DNA from: Escherichia coli
GTDB taxonomy: Bacteria > Pseudomonadota > Gammaproteobacteria > Enterobacterales > Enterobacteriaceae
Assembly (NCBI RefSeq): GCF_003018255.1
Contig: NZ_CP027440.1
Reading direction: 5' to 3' (one strand)
Length of the DNA stretch: 64,000 nucleotides
Position 1 is the first letter of the stretch. Every line of letters starts with the position of its first letter. The position numbers are program-made. This document shows positions 28,889 through 31,800 of this stretch, one piece after another.

Positions 28889-31800
28889 TAAAGGCAGTAC
28901 ATTAAAACAAGGAGCGGCAATGTATTACGGGTTTGATATTGGTGGAACAAAAATTGCGCTTGGCGTGTTTGATAGCGGTCGGCAGTTGCAGTGGGAAAAG
29001 CGGGTGCCGACACCGCGTGACAGCTATGACGCATTTTTAGATGCAGTGTGCGAGCTGGTAGCCGAAGCTGACCGGCGTTTTGGCTGTAAAGGTTCTGTCG
29101 GCATCGGTATTCCGGGAATGCCGGAAACAGAAGATGGTACGCTGTATGCCGCCAATGTCCCTGCTGCCAGCGGTAAACCGCTGCGTGCCGACCTGAGCGC
29201 ACGTCTTGATCGCGATGTACGCCTTGATAACGATGCCAACTGTTTTGCCCTTTCTGAAGCATGGGATGATGAATTTACTCAATATCCACTGGTGATGGGG
29301 TTGATTCTCGGCACCGGCGTTGGCGGCGGGCTGATTTTCAACGGTAAACCCATTACCGGTAAAAGCTATATTACCGGCGAGTTTGGCCATATGCGTCTGC
29401 CGGTTGATGCGTTAACCATGATGGGGCTGGATTTCCCGTTACGCCGCTGCGGCTGTGGTCAGCATGGCTGCATTGAAAATTATCTGTCTGGTCGCGGTTT
29501 TGCGTGGCTGTATCAACACTATTATCATCAACCGTTGCAGGCTCCCGAAATTATTGCGCTTTATGATCAAGGTGATGAGCAGGCAAGGGCGCACGTTGAG
29601 CGTTATCTGGATTTATTAGCGGTTTGTCTGGGAAATATCCTGACCATTGTTGACCCTGACCTGGTCGTCATTGGTGGTGGCTTATCGAATTTCCCGGCAA
29701 TCACAACGCAACTGGCGGACAGGCTGCCTCGTCATCTCTTACCTGTAGCTCGTGTTCCGCGCATTGAACGCGCGCGCCACGGTGATGCGGGAGGAATGCG
29801 TGGTGCGGCCTTCCTACATCTAACCGATTAAACAACAGAGGTTGCTATGCTGTCGCGTCGGGGTCATCGGTTAAGTCGTTTTCGTAAAAATAAACGCCGT
29901 CTGCGCGAGCGTTTGCGTCAGCGTATTTTTTTCAGAGATAAAGTGGTGCCGGAAGCAATGGAAAAACCAAGAGTACTCGTACTGACAGGGGCAGGGATTT
30001 CTGCGGAATCAGGTATTCGTACCTTTCGCGCCGCAGATGGCCTGTGGGAAGAACATCGGGTTGAAGATGTGGCAACGCCGGAAGGTTTCGATCGCGATCC
30101 TGAACTGGTGCAAACGTTTTATAACGCCCGTCGTCGACAGCTGCAGCAGCCAGAAATTCAGCCTAACGCCGCGCATCTTGCGCTGGCGAAACTGCAAGAC
30201 GCCCTCGGCGATCGCTTTTTGCTGGTGACGCAGAATATCGACAACCTGCATGAACGCGCAGGTAATACCAATGTCATTCATATGCATGGGGAACTGCTGA
30301 AAGTTCGCTGTTCGCAAAGTGGTCAGGTTCTCGACTGGACCGGAGATGTTACCCCAGAAGATAAATGCCATTGTTGCCAGTTCCCGGCACCCTTGCGCCC
30401 GCACGTAGTGTGGTTTGGCGAAATGCCACTCGGCATGGATGAAATTTATATGGCGTTGTCGATGGCCGATATTTTCATTGCTATTGGTACTTCGGGGCAT
30501 GTTTATCCGGCGGCTGGGTTTGTTCACGAAGCGAAACTGCATGGCGCGCACACCGTGGAACTGAATCTTGAACCGAGTCAGGTTGGTAATGAATTTGCCG
30601 AGAAATATTACGGTCCGGCAAGCCAGGTGGTGCCAGAGTTTGTTGAAAAGTTGCTGAAGGGATTATAAAGCGGGAAAAATTGCCTGATGCGCTACGCTTG
30701 TCAGGCCTGTGAAGGGGCGCAATTAATTGAATTTGCGGGTTTTGTGGGCCGGATAAGGCGTTCGCGCCGCATCCGGCAACTTTACTGCCTCTTTTACCGT
30801 TTACTCGTCCATAGTAACGCGGCAATAAACGTACAGACACCAATCAGCCCTGCCCAGAGCGGCGATATTCTGGTAATCGCAAAGCTGTTATCGATATACA
30901 AACATAAAGCCTGATAGCCCATATTGGCAACAGCCATAGCCACTGCAAATTTTAACGCATAATAAAGGCGCGTTGTGTAGTTAAAAAATGCAGCAAAGAC
31001 GATGAATGCAACTGCCCAGGCAAAAAGGCCTAATGTCGTGGTACTGCCGGGAAGATCATTCTCCTGCTGTTGTCCGGGATGCGGATAATATGTCAGTGGC
31101 GGCGTCGGTTGTTTTAATATCTGTGCTTGTAAAACAGCCAATGCATTATTGATTCCCTGATACCAGAGATCTGCATGTAAATAAGCCAGAGTGTGATTTT
31201 CTACCAGAAGGCCGAGATGTTTATCGTCCATGCTGCTTTCAACCTGGCCGTTGGTTATCATAATTAACCGTGGCTCGCGGGTAGTAAAAAGTAACAGAAC
31301 ACTTCCTTTTACATTACTCATTGAAGATGCCGCATGCGCCAGCATCGCTTTGCCATTTTGCCTGAAGCTTGCTTCATTAACGCCAGGTACAACCACGATA
31401 AACGGCGCAATCCCGGTTTGTTGACGAAAAAGTTCGGCTTTACGCGCGATCTCTTCGGCATCCGGTACAGTACCGGTAACATCCGTAAAAAGAGTCTTCA
31501 TTATTGGAATCAATGGCTTACTGGTTACCGTCAGAGGCAGGAGTATCAGTAAACTGAGCAATATTATGATTTTTTTCATGGGCGGGACTTCCGTTTCCTG
31601 CGTGTCTTTTTAGAGTAGGGCATACTGATTAATAAACCGACGGAGATAAAAATAACGCCCATAATGCCGATAAACCCCCATTTAAAAAAATTAACCCACG
31701 GGTTATTTATCTCAGCCTTTTCAGGATGTCCTGGAGAATAATAAACATTAACTTTATCGCCTTCACTGTCTTCATAAAAATCGCTGCCAATACTTGAATT

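Follow-up and report, generated by a model that had tools for sequence, protein, structure and literature searches.

The cobB gene, the family to which its product belongs and the REP elements are all textbook features. The CobB protein of Escherichia coli K-12 has 279 amino acids (aa), and we take this form to be the source of the constructs in PDB entries 1S5P and 6RXJ-6RXS. In Salmonella the long isoform of the enzyme, CobB-L, has 273 aa (PMC10965786), and a short isoform of 236 aa, CobB-S, is credited for Salmonella enterica to Tucker and Escalante-Semerena (2010), as cited in PMC10965786; the biology of the long and short isoforms is described in PMC10965786 and PMC4335977. Our literature searches for the difference between a 273-aa and a 279-aa CobB found no discussion of it. 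Both forms are already separate RefSeq proteins, and the difference between them is an ordinary natural polymorphism.

Here we examine cobB in a 64,000-nucleotide (nt) stretch of E. coli DNA (the window), in which the surrounding gene order is lolE-nagK-cobB-ycfZ-ymfA-potD. The Salmonella protein and the one encoded in the window are both 273 aa long and share the ...LLKGL end (two Salmonella loci fetched). Identity between Salmonella and the window is ~91%, and the DNA that follows the Salmonella stop codon is unrelated to the REP arrangement of Escherichia. Counterparts of the features that set the long and short Salmonella isoforms apart, namely a 37-residue N-terminal extension and Met38, can be discerned in the window from its sequence alone. 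K-12 CobB (WP_000952737.1) is encoded by the same gene at the same nagK-cobB-ycfZ locus, with a coding sequence that differs from that of the window at 17 of 819 nt; it carries six extra C-terminal residues, KAGSIA, which end at a TGA in the REP element, whereas the window CobB is without them. From the comparisons described below, we consider it very probable that the window holds the ancestral and majority end of cobB and that K-12 represents the derived state, brought about by a one-base deletion in the stop codon.

The CobB protein encoded in the window

The coding sequence of the long isoform, 273 aa plus a TAA stop, occupies 29847..30668 on the plus strand and is placed there by the ORF list, NCBIfam, Pfam and RefSeq. 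Its product scores 597.8 bits against NF001755, the NCBIfam equivalog model for the enterobacterial Sir2-family deacetylase (cutoff 318), over residues 1-272 of 273. The Pfam SIR2 domain (PF02146) is complete, spanning residues 48-221 with 183.6 bits and profile positions 1-180 of 180, and over residues 39/40-273 the protein is nearly the same in sequence as the E. coli CobB of the solved structures 1S5P and 6RXJ. We assign the protein to the CobB / Sir2-family NAD+-dependent protein deacetylase group, with the corresponding predicted activity. The 37-residue N-terminal extension is basic, and the internal Met38 that follows it, in the context EAMEKPRV, is likely to be the start of the short isoform. 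The cobB gene of the window is intact, with nothing disrupted or unusual about it.

Chains in the PDB continue beyond the position of L273 by six residues in the 6RXJ series and by one residue in 1S5P, lengths that are consistent with K-12-derived constructs. Scored against NF001755, the 279-aa K-12 form reaches 599.8 bits, the tail thus adding ~2 bits to the score of the 273-aa protein. A single substitution was seen over CobB residues 40-273 between the window and the K-12-derived PDB sequences: the window encodes Thr90 (codon 30114-30116), whereas the PDB sequences have Ala90 (ELVQAFYNAR). Upstream, a weak Rfam match to STnc500, an Hfq-binding sRNA of Salmonella, runs from the end of nagK into the start of cobB (29745-29956; 15.1 bits against a gathering score of 44, E = 0.37), and this match across the nagK-cobB junction is probably due to chance.

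Alleles at the cobB stop codon

Read directly, the CobB protein of the window ends ...EKLLKGL and is followed by a native TAA stop codon at 30666-30668 on the plus strand. The first base of this codon, T30666, is the base absent from K-12-type alleles. Deletion of T30666 in silico adds six codons (KAGKIA), yielding a 279-aa product that ends ...KLLKGLKAGKIA and moving the stop to a TGA at 30685-30687, which falls within the REP element GCCTGATGCGCTACGCTTGTCAGGCCT (30682-30708). The non-coding stretch 30667..30687 (plus strand), which reads KAGKIA and TGA only without T30666, is the counterpart of the K-12 KAGSIA tail. The original prediction had described both the end of cobB and the six codons opened by the removal of one nucleotide, and direct reading and the in-silico deletion bear it out in every detail. 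It was also right that the reference C-terminus is longer: in the K-12 derivative DH1Ec095, cobB is 840 nt long and encodes 279 aa ending ...KGLKAGSIA, without that T.

Both forms of the gene are annotated in RefSeq. The 840-nt, 279-aa form (WP_000952737.1) is found in DH1Ec095 and two other strains, and an 822-nt, 273-aa form (accessions WP_000952746.1, WP_000952736.1 and WP_000952747.1) in JNE23-011, an ST131 strain, an O157 strain and four other strains. WP_000952746.1 (JNE23-011, ST131) matches the window in length, in its ...EKLLKGL end and in its TAA stop, with no difference. Alleles encoding WP_000952736.1 differ from the window at 20-27 of 819 nt (O157 at 22, 13E0767 at 20, NRZ96052a at 23 and DETEC-P649 at 27) and have the same end. 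An alignment of the stop region shows GGATTA-TAA-AGC... in the window, ST131 and O157, one base apart from K-12, which is without the single T and reads GGATTA-AAA-GCG-GGA-AGC-ATT-GCC-TGA, that is, GLKAGSIA followed by the stop.

A 401-nt query around the stop codon matched 5,425 of 5,426 complete E. coli genomes. Over these 401 nt, JNE23-011 and the window share 100% identity, and the base at position 30666 in the window is the same in JNE23-011 and in thousands of other genomes. The alleles were counted with megablast queries of 32-33 nt, built so that no 28-mer seed could miss the polymorphic base, which lets only one allele seed a hit. The T allele, ...GGATTATAAAGC, was detected in 2,974 of the 5,426 genomes and a synonymous variant of it, ...GGCTTATAAAGC, in a further 702, for a T-allele total of 3,676 (67.7%). 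The no-T allele, ...GGATTAAAAGC, was detected in 1,707 genomes (31.5%), among them the K-12 and B laboratory strains BLR(DE3), HB101, MC4100 and ER1709, and none of the three allele probes matched in the remaining 43 (0.8%).

Full-length K-12 cobB finds at least 99% identity in exactly 1,707 records and 95-99% identity in 3,677, so that the totals of the identity classes mirror those of the alleles (compared as totals). Three sampled no-T alleles lie 1-4 nt from one another and 15-57 nt from T alleles. Because its identity is this tight and the counts are mirrored, the no-T allele appears to be a single close-knit haplotype, consistent with one origin, and we infer that the T was deleted once. 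ST167 strains are among its carriers alongside K-12 and B, and the no-T lineage would be expected to fall largely in phylogroup A. Five cobB matches in the E. coli genome collection, all of the T allele, fall on records that are designated plasmids, not chromosomes; the replicon label may be wrong, or a plasmid may carry a piece of the chromosome.

Direction of change and origin of the six-residue tail

For outgroups, we drew on a scan in which each bacterial species was represented by one genome; it supplied 80 orthologous loci, each translated from its start to the first stop. In 77 of these 80 Enterobacteriaceae species representatives the stop falls at the equivalent of the position after L273, with 73 proteins ending ...KGL, two ...QKM, one ...KEL and one ...AGL. 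The other three have 1-3 extra residues (KGLS twice and KEIAG once), and a KAGxIA tail was found at none of the 80 species-representative loci. Proteins that end at the same position include those of E. albertii, E. whittamii, cryptic Escherichia lineages, Citrobacter, Salmonella, Enterobacter, Kosakonia and Cedecea, and the C-terminus of CobB in the window lies at this orthologue-conserved position (...LLKGL-stop). Six other Escherichia lineages were fetched with their downstream DNA (E. albertii, E. whittamii, three cryptic Escherichia sp. or divergent 'E. coli' representatives, and MOD1-EC7003), and all six have a leucine codon (TTA or CTT), then TAA and then the same REP. In Citrobacter, Salmonella, Enterobacter and other genera the stop position is the same and the downstream DNA is unrelated. 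Taken together by parsimony, the outgroup and allele states indicate that the ancestor had the TAA and that one E. coli lineage deleted the T.

The original prediction had left a choice between a native end and a strain-specific insertion that shortens CobB. With TAA in 3,676 of 5,426 genomes and the same end in 77 of 80 outgroups, the native end stands and the insertion does not. Reference proteins ending at ...LLKGL, which it had named as the finding that would speak against an insertion, do exist outside K-12, in the annotated CobB of O157 and ST131 and in the 273-aa CobB of Salmonella. The comparison with reference cobB sequences that it proposed reveals a change that runs the opposite way, the K-12-type deletion (1,707 genomes) being the derived state.

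The DNA downstream of the stop points to where the K-12 tail came from. In E. albertii, O157 and other T-allele E. coli, taking away the T makes the sequence after the stop read KAGSIA, which is exactly the K-12 tail; the six residues of K-12 thus come from DNA that used to be intergenic. Elsewhere the shifted frame reads, depending on the lineage, KAGKIA, KAGVIA, KSGVIA, KAGKIS or KS followed directly by a stop, the frame being cut short in this last way in Escherichia sp. E1V33. Since the stretch varies in this manner among lineages, it evolves as non-coding DNA does, and the six-codon 'extension' in the window is, judging from these comparisons, non-coding DNA that by chance is open in the shifted frame.

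We propose that in the ancestral cobB a TAA would have stood directly after ...EKLLKGL (273 aa), followed by the REP pair and then by the convergent ycfZ. A one-base deletion of the T of this TAA, in one E. coli cobB haplotype lineage, would have brought six formerly intergenic codons (KAGSIA) into frame, after which translation would end at a TGA that happens to sit in the REP element. The resulting KAGSIA tail would be near-neutral.

A strain-specific single-base insertion at 30666, or an assembly or sequencing error there, could in principle have created a premature TAA and shortened CobB from 279 aa, and both the K-12 reference protein, six residues longer, and the spacing of the alleles, one base apart at the stop, accord with such an event. 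The T allele, however, is carried by 3,676 of the 5,426 complete E. coli genomes and by all six of the other Escherichia lineages fetched, the same protein end recurs in 77 of the 80 enterobacterial representatives, and the independent JNE23-011 repeats the sequence of the window without a change over 401 nt. On the strength of the allele counts and the outgroups, we reject an insertion or assembly error as extremely improbable. Programmed frameshifting or stop-codon bypass at TTA-TAA-A would instead make both ends products of one allele and the six codons a conserved alternative C-terminus. The shifted frame is indeed open for six codons, and closes at the same TGA, in most Escherichia lineages, but a frame only 18 nt long that ends in a conserved REP offers a simpler account of this openness. 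The RNA fold of the region gave no evidence of a frameshift-stimulating structure (z = -1.84, from the REP stems). The six codons, moreover, vary freely, as the five full-length readings given above (KAGSIA included) and the interruption in E1V33 attest, and the downstream sequence is unrelated outside Escherichia. We put the chance of programmed frameshifting or read-through at practically nil and reject it: the codons vary as non-coding DNA does, one Escherichia lineage has them interrupted, and other genera do not have them at all.

The K-12-type tail might also be an adaptive gain that one E. coli lineage has retained under selection, for example through CobB stability or partner binding. 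This reading concerns the other allele rather than the window and is compatible with the polarity in which TAA is ancestral. The presence of the no-T allele in 31% of complete genomes, nearly invariant at identities of at least 99%, could be taken in its favor; hitch-hiking, however, explains the frequency equally well: the lineage concerned, to which the laboratory strains K-12 and B belong, is successful and much sequenced. The tail is also unmodified intergenic DNA, brings only 2 bits to the family-model score and is missing from all other Enterobacteriaceae sampled, and we consider its selective maintenance very unlikely.

For the window itself, an ancestral TAA has little consequence, as cobB ends where the gene ends across Enterobacteriaceae. 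There is a lesson for annotation: because K-12 would be the derived state, with its stop deleted and translation reading through into the REP, a CobB of 273 aa in another strain should not be marked as a truncation or a frameshift. Constructs made from K-12 CobB end in six residues that are not conserved and that derive from formerly intergenic DNA. That this KAGSIA tail, present in ~31% of sequenced E. coli (K-12 and B included), measurably alters the stability, localisation or interactions of CobB, so that K-12 studies are unrepresentative, seems to us a long shot. If it were true, CobB biochemistry and acetylome studies based on K-12 would not be fully representative of the ancestral 273-aa enzyme, which is the form in most E. 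coli, the pathogens O157 and ST131 included.

REP elements and the cobB-ycfZ gap

The REP element that supplies the TGA used by K-12-type alleles is an imperfect palindrome located immediately 3' of cobB (30682..30708, plus strand) and was recognized with a REP consensus pattern. It has no mismatches to the degenerate consensus pattern, which had no matches in 100 shuffles, and in the RNA fold it pairs into a stem. Another REP, inverted, occupies 30748..30777 on the minus strand, where an inverted repeat (I1) with 13-nt arms coincides with a minus-strand match to the REP regex; a sub-threshold Rfam match to the REP-derived naRNA4 covers it (30747-30791; 39.4 bits against a gathering score of 59.5, E = 8e-5). 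Downstream lies the convergent gene ycfZ, which encodes a TPM-domain protein (30794..31579, minus strand; ORF list and RefSeq annotation of the identical JNE23-011 region). The two REPs form a BIME-like pair between convergent cobB and ycfZ, and the imperfect palindrome, the consensus match and the position between genes are all those of a REP/BIME.

A simple promoter and terminator scan of 30500-30900 found neither, and by that test the REP pair therefore does not qualify as a canonical intrinsic terminator. Folded as RNA, 30660-30800 does marginally better than shuffled sequences (z = -1.84), a value that reflects the REP stems and no special structure. The Rfam scan returned only the sub-threshold naRNA4 match and the STnc500 match. 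In E. coli genomes the 401-nt query around the cobB stop hits a median of two and up to six places per genome. Within the window the strict REP pattern, with three mismatches allowed, finds one copy only, and a looser regex finds four REP-like sites; besides the pair after cobB, the latter marks palindromes at 17766-17798 (minus strand) and 39511-39534 (plus strand).

The gap between cobB and ycfZ itself varies among strains. Just past the second REP, between 30777 and 30778, the window and JNE23-011 are without a 12-bp stretch, ATAATACACGCG, that is present in ST131 and K-12, and most full-length matches to the query are 412-414 nt long, as against 401 nt in the window. In one O157 strain and one O9:H10 strain, ycfZ and ymfA (30709-32079 in the window) are missing, and the first REP after cobB directly adjoins potD-proximal sequence, the junction being the same in both strains, ...GGACCACAATACC. 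This junction is shared despite different cobB alleles, T and no-T, in the O157 and O9:H10 strains. Approximately 574 of the 5,425 matching genomes cover less than 80% of the 401-nt query, and polymorphism for the presence or absence of ycfZ-ymfA beside the REP may be common.
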